Positions 35,914 through 41,985 are shown, numbered from the stretch's first letter. The stretch is 64,000 bases of DNA from an uncultured Pseudobdellovibrionaceae bacterium (GCA_964400355.1 CAYNTO010000013.1:8041-72040); one strand, 5' to 3'. Numbers and translations: made by a program. Notes: generated from the sequence alone by a model not told the origin.

Positions 35914-36636
35914 ATGACGAAATTATCTGTTTTTACACTGATCGCGCTTTTCACGACATTGGCACATGGAAAGCAATTCTCCAACTCTTACGTAAGCTTT
36001 AACTTACCCCCCAACTGGAACTGTAAAGTTGCAGGCACCGAGTGGGTGTGCCGAAGCTCAAACAACGATCAAGCCAAGCAGGCCATCATTGTTCTTACCG
36101 CGAAAGAAGTTGGTCCCAATGATAACTTCGCCTACTACAACCAATACTTAAAAGTGCCAAAGACGCCCAAACATCGTGACGGCACTGTGGCTACTACATC
36201 AAAGGTACAGCATTTAAAAACAGTGCAGATTTCCAATCACCCTTGGGTCGACGGACTTCACCTCGGTAGCTTACTCCCCAACTTTTATTCGCGCTATTTA
36301 GTGACGATCAAAGAAAAGATCGCGGTACTTGTCACGTTCAGCGCCAAAAAAGAATTTTACACGCTTTACAGCAAACATTTCTTCGAAGCCATCAATAGCT
36401 TACGCGTGACCGCAACGGCCGGGAAAAAATACGGCCAAGGAACACTCAAAGGTCCAACGGAAGCCCTCGGCGGTTTGGATATGCCACAAGATATGGATAC
36501 AGGTGAAGGTGGCGAGATGATCGGCGAAGACGGCAGCGGAGGAAAAGGCAAAAACTCCAACATGCTCCTCTATGGCGCGGCCCTGCTGTTGATCGGTGGA
36601 GCGTCGTTCTTCCTCATCAAAAAACGTCGTAAATAA
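35914..36636 (+). CDS. secreted protein with a C-terminal Gly-rich / TM / KKRRK anchor
   Basis: Signal peptide (LIALFTTLAHG). The C-terminus reads GEDGSGGKGKNSNMLLYGAALLLIGGASFFLIKKRRK. Confidence 0.55.
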   Translation: MTKLSVFTLIALFTTLAHGKQFSNSYVSFNLPPNWNCKVAGTEWVCRSSNNDQAKQAIIVLTAKEVGPNDNFAYYNQYLKVPKTPKHRDGTVATTSKVQHLKTVQISNHPWVDGLHLGSLLPNFYSRYLVTIKEKIAVLVTFSAKKEFYTLYSKHFFEAINSLRVTATAGKKYGQGTLKGPTEALGGLDMPQDMDTGEGGEMIGEDGSGGKGKNSNMLLYGAALLLIGGASFFLIKKRRK

Positions 36637-36638
36637 AA

Positions 36639-36664
36639 AGAGTGCCCATCAGGGCGGCTCTTTT
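36639..36664 (+). terminator. intrinsic terminator of the 240-aa gene
   Basis: AGAG(T)GCCC-atca-GGGC(GG)CTCT followed by TTTT, immediately after the stop codon. Confidence 0.65.
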
Positions 36665-36673
36665 GAGCGGACC

Positions 36674-36817
36674 GGCTGTGAATTGGATTTGGGATTTTGA
36701 TAGATTCCATTTCGAAGACACAGCTCCTGCTTCGCTGCAACCCCTGCGGGGACGCTTCCGCTTTGCAGAGGTCTCCGAAATGGAATCTATCAAAAATCCC
36801 AAATTCAATTCACAGCC
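36674..36817. repeat. hairpin element, copy 1 (~41-bp variable stem plus conserved 61-nt GC-rich core)
   Basis: Arms 36674-36714 and 36776-36817 are complementary, with one G-T apposition and one 1-nt bulge. Core 36715-36775 is the reverse complement of the copy 2 core apart from 4 nt. Confidence 0.85.
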
Positions 36818-37001
36818 TCCACGAACTAAGAATATCGCTAGCGGACATTTTCATTTCCCCATGGAGTAGCTACAAACTACCATCAACAACCTCCCACTTT
36901 TACCGCCTCAACCTCTCATCAAAGAGCGCAGCGACTTTTATTCTCCTCCCCCACCCCAAAGAGCAAGGTTACCTTTCCTTCTCCGAAATACCTCCGCGGA
37001 T

Positions 37002-37142
37002 GCGGATGTGTTTTGGCTTTTTTCGTGCGTATTGCATTTCGGAGACCTCTGCTGAGCGGAAGCGTCCCCGCAGGGGCAGCAGCGAAGCAGGAGCTGTGTC
37101 TTCGAAATGCAATACGCACGAAAAAAGCCAAAACATATCCGC
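37002..37142. repeat. hairpin element, copy 2 (40-bp variable stem plus conserved core, opposite orientation)
   Basis: Arms 37002-37041 and 37103-37142 are complementary, 40/40 with one G-T apposition. Core is 37042-37102. Confidence 0.85.
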
Positions 37143-37182
37143 ACCCGCACGGCGAATAGAATAAGAAAAGTGTAATGAGCGA

Positions 37183-37653
37183 TTACTGCATGAAGAAGCT
37201 AGTAAAGTAGACGCCTTTAATAAGGCCTTTGCTCAGCTGTTCGTTCACAGCCATTGAAATATCATCTTTAAGATAGAGCTTGCCCTGCACCGAGTGCAGA
37301 TCCGCATATTTCTTTTTAGCGAGAATTCCAACGATAGCATCGCGCACGACTGCGGTTTTGGTGACCACTTCTTCGTAGCTTTTTTCGTCGGCCATTTCTA
37401 AATTGATTTCCAACTGGAGAACGTGATCTTCTTCCACATCGATAAGATTCACCGTTAAGGTTTCGAAACTGTAGATAATAGGTTTATCGCTAAAGATTTG
37501 CATGTGATGAAGGTATTCAGACACGGACATGTCTTTGGCGTCCTTTGTCGGCGGCTCCACCAGAGGTGCGCTCAATGACATAAAGACAAGGACCACACCA
37601 CCAATGACACCGATAAGATTGATACCCGCTAGGGCCATTAAACCTTTACTCAT
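37183..37653 (-). CDS. fliL: flagellar basal-body-associated protein FliL
   Basis: N-terminal TM followed by a FliL-like domain (YSFETLTVNLID...LQLEINLEMADEKSYEEV...RDAIVGILAKKKYADL). Confidence 0.8.
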   Translation of the reverse strand: MSKGLMALAGINLIGVIGGVVLVFMSLSAPLVEPPTKDAKDMSVSEYLHHMQIFSDKPIIYSFETLTVNLIDVEEDHVLQLEINLEMADEKSYEEVVTKTAVVRDAIVGILAKKKYADLHSVQGKLYLKDDISMAVNEQLSKGLIKGVYFTSFFMQ

Positions 37654-40214: not shown

Positions 40215-41156
40215 ATGAAAACGATGCTTGTGGTTTTATTAATGGCGGGATCAGTTGTGGCTAATGCCGCGCAAGAAGTTGCTTTTGATTCAAAGGACAC
40301 ACGTCCACTGGATCAACGGCACTCTCAAACATCCGGAGTGTTTTCTAAAGTACTAACGCACGAAGGACAGCTGTATACTGTTATGTACGAAGCGCGCCAA
40401 CAGAACAGAGACATCGCCACCCGCGTGATTGCCGTCTGTTCCATTTTTAGTAAAGACTCCATTAGTAAATGCACGCAAGAGCCTCGCACACCCACCACGA
40501 TGGCTGTTTACAACAAGGCCATCGCTGAGCGCAAAAAAGGTGACTGTGCAGAAATCGCATTGATTCACGCCGACAATATGAAAGTGCGTGCGGCCATCTC
40601 TGACTTTAACGAGAAGAAGGCCACACGTGATAGCGCCACCAACCAACGTGAAATGGCAATCATAATGAACGGCTTGGGAAATCAAGTTGAGGCCCTCAGT
40701 GTAAAAACCAACAATCAGGCCTACGCCTCCAACGTTTCTGCATCTCGCGAACTTATGAATCTTGTCGCCAACCGCCAAGTGCCAGAAGCTGATGCCATCC
40801 AGCACATGGTCACCAACATTAATATATTAAATGACAACTACGCTGATCTTTTATCGAAGACCCAATGTACAAATGAACAACTTCAGGTATGCGCCATCAA
40901 CAAACAAAACGGCCAAATCGTGACTCCGGGCACCCATCCCGAGGCCCAACTTGTTTACAATGAGCTTCTGCGCCGCAAAGTCATCGAAATCAAAGCGTGT
41001 AGCCTTGCACCTCAACAACCTACGGGATCCAACTCTGGAGTGATTGCACCGGCACCACCTGCCAATCCGCCAGCAGTTATTCAACCAAAGCCAGTAGATC
41101 CAAATCCTGTAGCTGTAGATCCCAACGAAGCACTCGTAGAGCCAGTCATTCAATAA
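40215..41156 (+). CDS. secreted hypothetical protein, paralogue A
   Basis: Signal peptide (LVVLLMAGSVVANA), a conserved Cys pattern near the C-terminus and a Pro-rich tail. Confidence 0.6.
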   Translation: MKTMLVVLLMAGSVVANAAQEVAFDSKDTRPLDQRHSQTSGVFSKVLTHEGQLYTVMYEARQQNRDIATRVIAVCSIFSKDSISKCTQEPRTPTTMAVYNKAIAERKKGDCAEIALIHADNMKVRAAISDFNEKKATRDSATNQREMAIIMNGLGNQVEALSVKTNNQAYASNVSASRELMNLVANRQVPEADAIQHMVTNINILNDNYADLLSKTQCTNEQLQVCAINKQNGQIVTPGTHPEAQLVYNELLRRKVIEIKACSLAPQQPTGSNSGVIAPAPPANPPAVIQPKPVDPNPVAVDPNEALVEPVIQ

Positions 41157-41198
41157 AAAATCTGAGCCGCGACTGCGGCTCTTTAAAACGGGGAAAAT

Positions 41199-41909
41199 AT
41201 GTTTAAAATTTTAATAGTCACGCTACTGAGCTCTGCATCGATCGCCTCAGCCAACTCGGCGGAGGCAATCCCAGTGGATCCCAACGCCGCAGAAGAAGTC
41301 ACCCTCGATGTTCAACCACAAGCAGAGATAGATTGCGCTAAAGTGTCCGCCATCAATAGTAAATACATTCTTCTAAAATACGACCTTGAGTATTTTAAAA
41401 ACAATCGCTCACAAAACACATTGGATAAAAATAAATCCTTACTAGCAAATATTCTCGCAAAACTCCACAATATCACCCAGGAAATGGCCACGAACCTCAG
41501 TACCGAGGAAAAGAAGCAAAACCTGCAAAGTGTTCGCACTCTTTTGGCTTCGGTTCGCGACGGCACCGCCGATACTCGCGATGCTGTAAACAAACAACTT
41601 CCAACGCATATCAATCAAACAAGTGCCGATTACAAAGCGCTTCTTGGGCAGAGCAAGTGCGCGGCGGATTCTTTAGTGCTGTGCCCCTACAACAAACTTG
41701 GTAATAAAATTCCCGCCGATATGACCAACATGACGAGCCGTCGCCACTACGAAATCCAAGCGCGCTTAGGCCACATCGATCTCAAACCGTGTAACTACGT
41801 CAACACGGCTGCGCCGATCGAGGACAAAGTGGATGCCATAGAACCTGAATTAGAACAAGCAGTTCCCGCAGCTCCTGGGGCTAATGAAGAAACGGTTATC
41901 GCCCAATAA
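41199..41909 (+). CDS. secreted hypothetical protein, paralogue B
   Basis: Signal peptide (LLSSASIASA). ADYKALLGQSKCAADSLVLCPYNKLGNKIP...LKPCNY aligns with DNYADLLSKTQCTNEQLQVCAINKQNGQIV...IKACSL of the upstream gene. Confidence 0.6.
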   Translation: MFKILIVTLLSSASIASANSAEAIPVDPNAAEEVTLDVQPQAEIDCAKVSAINSKYILLKYDLEYFKNNRSQNTLDKNKSLLANILAKLHNITQEMATNLSTEEKKQNLQSVRTLLASVRDGTADTRDAVNKQLPTHINQTSADYKALLGQSKCAADSLVLCPYNKLGNKIPADMTNMTSRRHYEIQARLGHIDLKPCNYVNTAAPIEDKVDAIEPELEQAVPAAPGANEETVIAQ

Positions 41910-41954
41910 CGAAATCGCGAGGCGTCCAAACTCGCTCCCATTTTAAATAAAAAA

Positions 41955-41985
41955 AGCCTGATGTTTCCATCAGGCTTTTGTTTTT
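41955..41985. terminator. bidirectional intrinsic terminator (paralogue B / rpsA)
   Basis: AAAAAA-AGCCTGATG-tttc-CATCAGGCT-TTTGTTTTT. Confidence 0.8.

Follow-up and report, generated by a model that had tools for sequence, protein, structure and literature searches.

A small intergenic insertion in a Bdellovibrionales genome carries twin hairpins with a common centre and unrelated stems

The spacer between two convergent genes of a Bdellovibrionales MAG, which belongs to a predatory-bacterium lineage, contains twin hairpins that share a 75-nt GC-rich unit at their centres. We show that the two units are arranged as 95%-identical, 75-bp terminal inverted repeats of an inserted block of ~475 bp. 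A conserved centre enclosed by unrelated perfect stems is an unusual form, and the block resembles selfish palindromic DNA that has been moulded by errors of copy-back replication, rather than a demonstrated RNA gene. That the stems arose by fold-back, when this happened and that the unit is mobile are our inferences.

A 475-bp block between convergent genes

The window, by which we mean the whole 64-kb stretch of DNA analysed, has a GC content of ~48%. Homologues of the 240-aa protein encoded next to the hairpins, and of its neighbours, bear the source names Bdellovibrionaceae or Bdellovibrionales. The spacer comprises 546 nt (36637–37182), with the 240-aa gene on the plus strand at one side and fliL on the minus strand at the other; the ORF list and Pfam agree on this point with an earlier interpretation made from the sequence alone (the sequence-only reading), which had placed both elements between these two genes. 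The gene order S8 subtilase, 240-aa gene, fliL, rhomboid, glyoxalase, HIT, rpsA is kept in relatives. The 240-aa protein has no Pfam match, and its homologues are labelled 'LPXTG cell wall anchor domain-containing protein [Bdellovibrionaceae bacterium]' by the sources. The terminator of this gene (Table 1) is located outside the block, ahead of copy 1, and a similar short terminator is found 3' of the orthologous gene in L010 and L016 (L numbers denote the contigs and loci compared with the window).

The ORFs of the spacer have no Pfam match and are absent as called genes from public collections (exact look-up, both as translated and with Met as the first residue); the sole match of the 155-aa spacer ORF among 1.84 billion representatives is spurious, a repeat protein with E = 3.5e-4. 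The possibility that the spacer is a decayed copy of the tandem paralogue gene of L017 was rejected, as the tblastn signal was absent, and the middle segment 36818–36995 contains no remnant of the neighbouring paralogue gene. A Pfam scan of the neighbouring genes detected no transposase, integrase or reverse-transcriptase domains within ~9 kb on either side, in accord with the earlier statement that mobile-element genes are absent nearby.

Table 1. Features of the spacer and of the convergent genes that bound it (window coordinates)
Feature	Position	Strand	Basis or remark
Upstream convergent gene, 240-aa secreted or anchored protein	35914–36636	+	ORF list; after S8 subtilase gene
Intrinsic-terminator-like hairpin with T-tract, the upstream gene's own	36643–36664	+	Terminator scan
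Copy 1 hairpin	36674–36817		
Copy 1 outer arm A	36674–36707	.	Reverse complement of 36783–36817
Shared unit, copy 1, 75 nt	36708–36782	-	Repeat finder and alignment; GC 0.59
Copy 1 clamps	36708–36719, 36771–36782		
Inner arm A' of copy 1; forms the left end of the 252-bp inner segment	36783–36817	.	Repeat finder and alignment
Middle of the inner segment, 178 nt	36818–36995	.	No BLAST or Pfam match
Copy 2 hairpin	36996–37148		
Inner arm B of copy 2; forms the right end of the inner segment	36996–37034	.	Repeat finder and alignment
Shared unit, copy 2, 75 nt	37035–37109	+	Repeat finder and alignment; GC 0.61
Copy 2 clamps	37035–37046, 37098–37109		
Copy 2 outer arm B'	37110–37148	.	Reverse complement of 36996–37034
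Downstream convergent gene fliL	37183–37653	-	Pfam PF03748, E = 6e-21

The block (36674–37148, ~475 bp) reads A, reversed unit, A', middle, B, forward unit, B', where the forward orientation of the unit is defined as 5'-CATTTCGGAGACC...GTCTTCGAAATG-3', so that copy 1 runs in reverse and copy 2 in the forward direction. The units are thus inverted relative to each other, with the GGAGAC end pointing inward in both, and one unit abuts each end of an inner segment of 252 bp (36783–37034). The outer arms are reverse complements of the 34–39 bp located just inside each unit. The sequences flanking each unit are inverted rather than direct (GATTC / GAATC). The flanks of the whole block share at most a 3-nt ACC, the placement of which depends on the chosen end of the copy 2 arm, and apart from this ambiguous trinucleotide no target-site duplication is evident.

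The same spacer is much shorter in most relatives. It measures 34 bp in L016 (81% protein identity to the window), where it holds a short bidirectional terminator alone, 18 bp in L011 (77%), 42 bp in L013 and L014 (70%) and 31 bp in L015 (65%), whereas in L012 (74%) a spacer of 220 bp contains a different palindrome. The contig of the closest relative, L010 (86% protein identity), stops 27 nt past the gene. Because the orthologous spacers are only 18–42 bp long in four related lineages (five loci), we regard the block as a lineage-specific insertion. Since the unit is present exactly twice, 252 bp apart, and in none of the other sequences searched, a single insertion bounded by terminal repeats is a more parsimonious explanation than two separate landings.

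Two hairpins around one conserved unit

The unit consists of a clamp, i.e. a 12-bp imperfect inverted pair CATTTCGGAGAC / GTCTTCGAAATG, around a 51-bp quasi-palindromic centre. The sequence-only reading had correctly described a conserved GC-rich centre and had given the clamp as 7 bp instead of 12. The clamp 12-mer is confined to four places in the 64-kb window, and a partial match of 10 nt, TCTCCGAAAT, occurs at 36980 in the middle segment. The single clamp mismatch is common to both copies, and it is therefore a feature of the unit rather than of the arms; it is older than the copies and was left uncorrected. Type IIS sites (GAAGAC, GGTCTC) are present at the unit ends; a synthetic construct as their source was rejected, given that the sites do not have the orientation of a cloning cassette and that the context is that of a natural MAG.

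The two units differ by four substitutions in 75 nt, namely AA>TG at 36739–40 / 37053–54 and TT>CA at 36763–64 / 37077–78, and are thus identical at 71 of 75 positions (95%). The two dinucleotide changes are mutually complementary and fall in the sole internal Watson-Crick helix of at least 6 bp that is found in both copies, which bears out the earlier view that the four core differences amount to two compensatory swaps in one 6-bp helix. The mirrored dinucleotide swap is too specific for chance, which would yield it roughly once in 1000 cases. In minimum-energy predictions, however, the two units adopt different folds, and the 6-bp helix is not part of both. Compared with shuffled sequences, the unit alone has z = -2.7 to -2.9 on the forward strand and -1.6 on the reverse strand.

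Each hairpin spans ~145 bases and has a predicted fold energy of -84 to -97 kcal/mol (z = -11.6 to -13.3), either strand alike. An inverted-repeat finder recovers both of them and further reports an 83-nt reverse-complement match of 93% between 36704–36786 and 37031–37113. The arms of copy 1 are AT-rich (GC 0.34–0.38 vs 0.59 for the unit) and, being 34 and 35 nt long, differ from each other in an explicit alignment by one transition and one 1-nt homopolymer indel, while those of copy 2 differ by two transitions in 39 nt. Self-pairing had been recognised for both stems in the sequence-only reading; it stands for copy 1 with these differences, and for copy 2 with a palindrome that is 6 nt longer on each side (36996–37148). 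The arms of copy 1 are unrelated to those of copy 2, local alignment being no better than between shuffled sequences (p = 0.25); this again agrees with the earlier observation and leads to the rejection of diverged homology between the two pairs of arms. Copying of the arms from another place in the window was likewise rejected, since BLAST returned nothing. The inner arm of copy 1 resembles the ancestral terminator stem of L016 at 11 of 12 positions, although inverted inside-out and with marginal significance; this match was not used.

Any transition in a DNA palindrome produces a G.T apposition on one strand and an A.C apposition on the other. Accordingly, on the plus strand the non-pairs of copy 1 are a G.T in the stem and an A.C in the clamp, with the reverse on the minus strand, and those of copy 2 are two G.T and an A.C at 37000. 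The statement that G-T appositions are the only ones in the stems thus fails, each strand of each copy also carrying A.C, and the argument from wobble pairs for an RNA is invalid because neither strand has wobbles alone.

The arms differ at 2 of 34 positions in copy 1 and at 2 of 39 in copy 2, and the units at 4 of 75, all of which correspond to a divergence of ~5–6%. Resting as it does on 2, 2 and 4 differences, this agreement suggests that the arms were made at about the time when the two units last shared an ancestor. The near-equal divergences, small as the numbers are, argue against a continuous symmetrisation of ancient palindromes.

The elements are also represented in reads. Independent Logan short-read assemblies (SRR15237804/06) enter both elements from the flanking genes, and their contigs stop where the copies turn identical or diverge, branching exactly at the variable dinucleotide; for example, contig L002 runs from fliL through arm B' and ends at the clamp. 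Contigs that enter both elements and break at the points of identity and divergence indicate that the elements and both of their variants are present in the reads.

Palindromes in relatives and searches for further units

Among the Bdellovibrionales relatives, we found elements that share the build of the window hairpins, with AT-rich unique arms around a GC-rich core bounded by GAGAC...GTCTC. One of them, L012:7745-7932, has 53-nt AT-rich arms and an 82-nt core of ~70% GC with the bounds AGAGAC...GTCTCT; the core starts with GAGACCTCT, as does the unit in the window. The arms of this element are not conserved in the orthologous rpsA-HIT spacers, where only the rpsA terminator is. A second relative with a window-like build is L013:7018-7176. 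A consensus of copy 1, copy 2 and the L012:7745 core keeps the clamp helix and a central hairpin. The different palindrome that occupies the orthologous spacer of L012 (L012:4771-4899) is near-perfect, 123–129 nt long, with 57–60-nt arms and a 9-nt loop, and is devoid of a GC-rich core.

The palindrome of L005 is perfect, extends over 102 bp and fills the whole spacer between two convergent genes, including both TAG stops. It is found again, identically, in L022 from an ENA assembly. The centre of this palindrome is a canonical bidirectional intrinsic terminator, and an identical 12-bp clamp lies in the middle of its stem, whereas the centre and the outer arms differ from those in the window. 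An outer module, AGGTACCTGRTTCC, is common to L005/L022 and L012:4771-4899; the L005 version, AGGTACCTGGTTCC, matches the L012:4771 outer arm at 13 of 14 positions. We accepted L005 as a relative because its TrxB homologues belong to the Bdellovibrionales, its similarity to copy 1 continues as far as TTCC(C)ATTTCGGAGAC and the outer module is shared with L012. Finally, L021:6587-6781 is a palindrome with 91-nt arms for which two head-to-head paralogue genes supply their 5' ends, indicating that local inverted homogenisation occurs in Bdellovibrionales genomes.

A convergent-gene location is observed for five out of six such elements (window, L012:4771, L013:7018, L005/L022). Judging from these sequences, the lineage appears to carry a loose, modular family of long palindromes. 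The unclassified family proposed in the sequence-only reading is in this way partly upheld: no further copies of the unit were found, and elements of the same build do exist in relatives (L012:7745-7932, L013:7018-7176 and, by its clamp, L005/L022).

The searches for further copies of the unit covered several collections. There is no third copy in the 64-kb window. A 21-mer from the core, compared with 185,579 species genomes (one each), gave a single match, in coding sequence from an unrelated high-GC Firmicute MAG, which we judged to be due to chance. No unit copy was detected in IMG/VR with the 21-mer, the clamp pattern or a 22-mer from the middle segment, nor in plasmids by blastn, and the concatenated six-frame translations of the unit matched nothing among 5.8 billion proteins. 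When both window copies and L012:7745 were combined in a covariance model, a check for more copies that the sequence-only reading had called for, the model recovered zero new members from 180 kb of Bdellovibrionales loci. A metagenome scan with the clamp pattern yielded five loci, and a few chance matches to it are expected because a palindromic pattern in a palindromic target holds only ~12 nt of information. Two sets of candidate relatives were left unproven, namely L006 (coding, high GC) and L007–L009 (ORF-poor, 39–45% GC, probably not bacterial). Within the collections scanned, the unit of the window is known from two copies alone.

Origin of the block and comparison with known systems

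The most economical reading is that the block is palindromic intergenic DNA shaped by template switching and not a new RNA class. Specifically, we tentatively prefer a scenario of one small insertion with hairpin-prone 75-bp terminal inverted repeats, in which fold-back or template-switch synthesis made both the arms and the swap. The unit would fold on itself in single-stranded DNA, and a nascent 3' end could snap back at the clamp during insertion, end repair or later replication; the snapped-back end would then copy the adjacent inner sequence, by fold-back priming or intrastrand template switching, and thereby give each end its own stem. The same mutational process could mirror one dinucleotide change across the internal 6-bp helix (CTGC/GCAG repeat). 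The block might persist since it lies downstream of terminators between convergent genes and would be harmless there; on read-through transcripts, if any, it could serve solely as a 3' hairpin barrier.

Template switching can produce perfect stems in a single event, as well as multibase compensatory changes without selection (PMC8794818), and it homogenises repeat arms and inverts their spacers (PMC8604942), while fold-back priming at short inverted repeats leads to inverted duplications (PMC10622511). The mirrored swap alone is no sign of selection on an RNA because a template switch yields the same pattern. As fold-back synthesis predicts, the outer arms are reverse complements of the adjacent inner sequence across units bounded by the 12-bp clamp. 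The likeness to template-switch and fold-back products thus extends to near-perfect reverse-complement copies of adjacent sequence around a short inverted repeat (PMC8794818, PMC8604942, PMC10622511) and, as in quasipalindromes, to multinucleotide changes mirrored across a helix and a labile spacer orientation. However, these are mutational processes and not element families, and fold-back would in this case need to have affected either end of a single insertion, over 34–39 nt. In the relatives the whole block is missing, the donor inner segment included; no ancestor has the inner segment with no fold-back arms, and we thus infer the direction of copying rather than show it. The sequence-only reading had offered a core that inserts into or generates palindromes as one of two alternatives, and it is the one favoured by the absence of the block in relatives, the inverted-repeat layout, the reverse-complement arms and the similar divergences of arms and units (~5–6%). 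It should be noted that only two copies of the unit are known, that the searches revealed no transposase and that a clear target-site duplication is lacking, all of which count against fold-back.

A nested insertion, in which a 75-bp mobile unit with terminal inverted repeats landed twice, each time at the exact centre of an older unrelated palindrome, is the next reading to consider and seems unlikely. Long palindromes without a core do exist in relatives, one of them in the same spacer (L012:4771-4899), and layering is apparent from the outer module common to L005 and L012:4771, whose inner parts differ, and from the clamp common to L005 and the window, which differ both inside and outside of it. 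This sharing of clamp and outer module by L005/L022 is better explained by modular or nested palindromes than by purely local arms. Palindromic repeats are documented targets of insertion sequences (PMC1525189), and IS1397 and ISPpu9, which reside in REPs, would likewise place a mobile sequence at the centre of an unrelated palindrome; these, however, are full insertion sequences with a transposase, and their targets are abundant short REPs (PMC1525189, PMC12288879), whereas the insert here is 75 bp and the would-be targets are unique palindromes of 70–80 bp. The scenario further requires two palindromes and two insertions within 500 bp, in a spacer that measures 18–42 bp in relatives, leaves the symmetric orientation of the units and the equal divergences of arms and units unexplained, and has no candidate enzyme among the genes found.

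We consider it quite improbable that the hairpins are transcribed as a structured non-coding RNA whose core fold is functional, e.g., as a substrate of RNase III or in the form of a small RNA, with stems free to vary as long as they are paired. The extreme fold stability, the retention of the 6-bp helix by the mirrored dinucleotide change and the diverged L012 core, which has the same start as the unit and contributes to a three-sequence consensus with the clamp helix and central hairpin, are consistent with such a role. Nevertheless, the Rfam search proposed in the sequence-only reading gave zero matches over the whole window at the gathering threshold, and at E ≤ 10 the region 36500–37300 had only generic hairpin matches to miRNA precursors, namely MIR2950 (40.6 bits, gathering 76) and mir-194 (13 bits). 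No promoter-like site was detected in 36400–37400. Both strands fold equally well, as a DNA palindrome predicts, A.C mismatches stand beside G.T on each strand, the two units do not adopt the same best fold, and by itself the unit exceeds shuffled sequences in stability only modestly on one strand and less so on the other. Moreover, the block is missing at this locus in four related lineages, searches of large collections yielded no homologue and the two known copies are near-identical, and a near-perfect 40-bp stem is unlike the drifting stems of RNAs. The other alternative of the sequence-only reading, a structured RNA selected for its fold, is therefore unsupported by the Rfam, promoter and folding results.

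A further scenario, to which we also assign a low probability, is that the block represents an integrated and partly unfolded hairpin-capped (dumbbell-like) DNA element or, more generally, that the 75-bp unit acts as a "palindrome seed" that builds stems from adjoining DNA. The order arm, unit, segment, inverted unit, arm corresponds exactly to S - U - rc(S) - rc(U) opened within rc(S). Hairpin-ended replicons include parvoviral ITRs with flip/flop forms and poxvirus or N15-type telomeres, as well as their concatemer junctions. We take the window hairpins to resemble these in their length of ~145 nt, their ~41-bp stem and the asymmetric region that it encloses, which contains small internal hairpins; this region is oppositely oriented at the two ends, and the block matches a permuted, partly deleted duplex of the dumbbell S - U - rc(S) - rc(U). 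Unlike such replicons, the block is chromosomal, intergenic and 475 bp long, the stems of its two ends differ, no Rep, protelomerase or replication gene is found within 9 kb, and there is no similarity to known telomere-resolution sites.

Selection of the hairpins as bidirectional terminators or exonuclease barriers between convergent genes is very unlikely. This role would agree with the convergent-gene position, observed in five of the six elements, and with the L005/L022 palindrome, which fills its whole spacer around a textbook bidirectional intrinsic terminator. The window hairpins, in contrast, are 3–4 times longer than intrinsic bidirectional terminators, and neither the terminator scan nor reading of the sequence reveals a T-run (U-tract) after either of them on either strand. 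They are also extra to the existing terminator at 36643–36664, which already serves the upstream gene; a single terminator of ~35 bp suffices in relatives, and ordinary terminators in the window are short (e.g., 41946–41985). An assembly or amplification artefact, such as chimeric inverted joins, is hardly credible. It could be suspected from the MAG source of the window, from the breaks of short-read contigs within the elements and from the fact that the inner halves and middle segment are known from the window assembly alone. Against it, the outer arms and the start of the unit recur in the Logan assemblies from two runs, which branch at the variable dinucleotide, a shared 75-nt unit is not typical of artefacts, and the comparable L005/L022 palindrome is identical from the JGI and ENA pipelines.

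With MITEs, REP/REPIN, ERIC and Correia repeats the block shares its small size, its non-coding, gene-free and hairpin-forming nature, a 3' intergenic location between convergent genes and presence or absence among relatives. At the level of the block the arrangement of unit, 252 bp and inverted unit, with units identical at 71 of 75 positions, is MITE-like, whereas a comparison of the two hairpins shows no conservation of their outer arms. Unlike in REP, REPIN and MITE hairpins, the centre is conserved and the stem is variable (PMC3116915). The earlier description of the elements as the reverse of MITE or REP architecture applies to the hairpin; the block as a whole has MITE-like terminal inverted repeats. 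Also in contrast to MITEs and REPs, the unit is known from just two copies, a clear target-site duplication is missing, and no cognate transposase or RAYT was found. We observed no conserved GTAG-type head motif of REP/REPIN and, in the regions of the window scanned, no Y1/HUH gene. The hairpin ends GGCTGTG...CACAGCC and GCGGATG...CATATCCGC do not conform to the RYYYAAC ... GTTRRRY of integron attC sites, the conserved box is located in the middle of the stem rather than at its outer ends, and no integrase gene is nearby. A retron msr/msd is not indicated, as the neighbouring genes have no reverse-transcriptase domain, and of Rho-independent terminators only the short one at 36643–36664 was found, the long hairpins having no following U-tract.

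What the block means depends on which of these scenarios is true. Under the dumbbell scenario, it would be a bacterial mobile or replicating element that moves via hairpin-ended intermediates with flip/flop loops and, as with the seed variant, would represent a previously undescribed class in the Bdellovibrionales, kin to the GAGAC-bounded GC-rich cores of relatives. Should more copies of the unit with stems of their own exist, they would constitute a mobile element conserved at the hairpin centre, the inverse of the MITE/REP/REPIN logic, for which a new mechanism of transposition or replication would be needed. If the fold-back scenario is true, the block would be a clean natural case of a short hairpin-prone repeat building perfect 40-bp stems and "compensatory" changes without selection on an RNA, and would carry a practical caution for covariation-based discovery of non-coding RNAs; it would also mean that the modular palindromes of this predatory lineage repeatedly colonise the same convergent-gene spacers.

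Palindromes and the clamp of the window unit

The 12-bp clamp CATTTCGGAGAC, which bounds the 75-nt window unit, is common to this unit and to a perfect palindrome found in two assemblies of another Bdellovibrionales lineage (L005 and L022; see table). There, the palindrome occupies exactly the interval that separates a response-regulator gene from a convergent ABC-ATPase gene, both TAG stop codons fall inside it, and its centre (AAAAAAGGCGGGG..CCCCGCCTTTTTT) is a textbook bidirectional terminator. Its outer arm matches at 13 of 14 positions the outer arm AGGTACCTGATTCC of a near-perfect palindrome, devoid of a GC-rich core, that is located in the spacer between the 240-aa-protein gene and fliL in a relative with 74% identity (L012).

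Among metagenome contigs retrieved by the clamp-pattern scan, L007, L008 and L009 share conserved outer arms (GTTTAACGTCCCAC..ACAGTATAGGTCATTTCGGAGAC) that end in the same 12-mer as the window clamp, and their centres, located between GAGACG and CGTCTC, are hypervariable and perfectly palindromic. This family may be kin to the window unit or may reflect a chance match. In the window, the middle segment between the two hairpins also contains, just upstream of copy 2, 10 nt (TCTCCGAAAT) that match the clamp in direct orientation; these may be left over from a third unit end or may be a chance occurrence.

Coordinates of the palindromes, motifs and variable genes
Feature	Location	Description
Perfect 102-bp palindrome	L005:459-560 = L022:3393-3494	Another Bdellovibrionales lineage
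Near-perfect palindrome	L012:4771-4899 (= L021:10771-10899)	Arms 57-60 nt, loop 9 nt
Palindrome family	L007:177-261; L008:176-263; L009:1959-2078	ORF-poor metagenome contigs, 39-45% GC
10-nt clamp match	window 36980-36989	
Hairpin elements	L012:7745-7932; L013:7018-7176	GC-rich cores, long AT-rich unique arms
Type IIS restriction sites	window 36714-36719; 36770-36775; 37041-37046; 37098-37103	Unit ends
Two head-to-head 23S_rRNA_IVP (PF05635) paralogues	L021:6385-7034	65% identical overall
237-aa tandem paralogue	L017:6734-7447; L018:5057-5770	
Two genes, 313 aa and 236 aa	window 40215-41909	HIT-rpsA interval; without Pfam matches

GC-rich cores and motifs at their boundaries

The L012 hairpin element, located downstream of the rpsA terminator, has a core that starts with GAGACCTCT, as does the window unit, and is bounded by AGAGAC...GTCTCT; its arms have no counterpart in the orthologous spacers of relatives. 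The ends of the window unit carry GAAGAC (BbsI) and GGTCTC (BsaI) sites, and GAGAC also marks the arm/core junction in this L012 element, in the L005 palindrome and in L013:15643-15691. These motifs may serve for recognition or cleavage, or may be coincidental.

Variable spacers and their representation in assemblies

In some relatives (L017 and L018), the 240-aa anchored protein has a tandem paralogue of 237 aa, encoded between the 240-aa gene and the expected fliL site; no remnant of it was found in the window. In L021, the first ~15 codons and the upstream regions of two 23S_rRNA_IVP genes form a palindrome with 91-nt arms (92%), and GTACTGA tandem repeats lie on either side of the gene pair; at this insertion site, L013 has a palindromic element instead.

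Assemblies of these genomes probably under-represent long palindromes or repeats, because Logan short-read contigs from the window lineage and its relatives (L002, L003, L004, L010, L017 and L018) stop time and again at these spacers or just short of them. L010, the closest relative, ends 27 nt past the 240-aa-protein gene, and L017 and L018, from two samples, stop at the identical base position.

The HIT-rpsA interval, which holds two genes in the window and either a short spacer or the L012:7745 hairpin element in relatives, looks like another variable spot amid otherwise conserved synteny.
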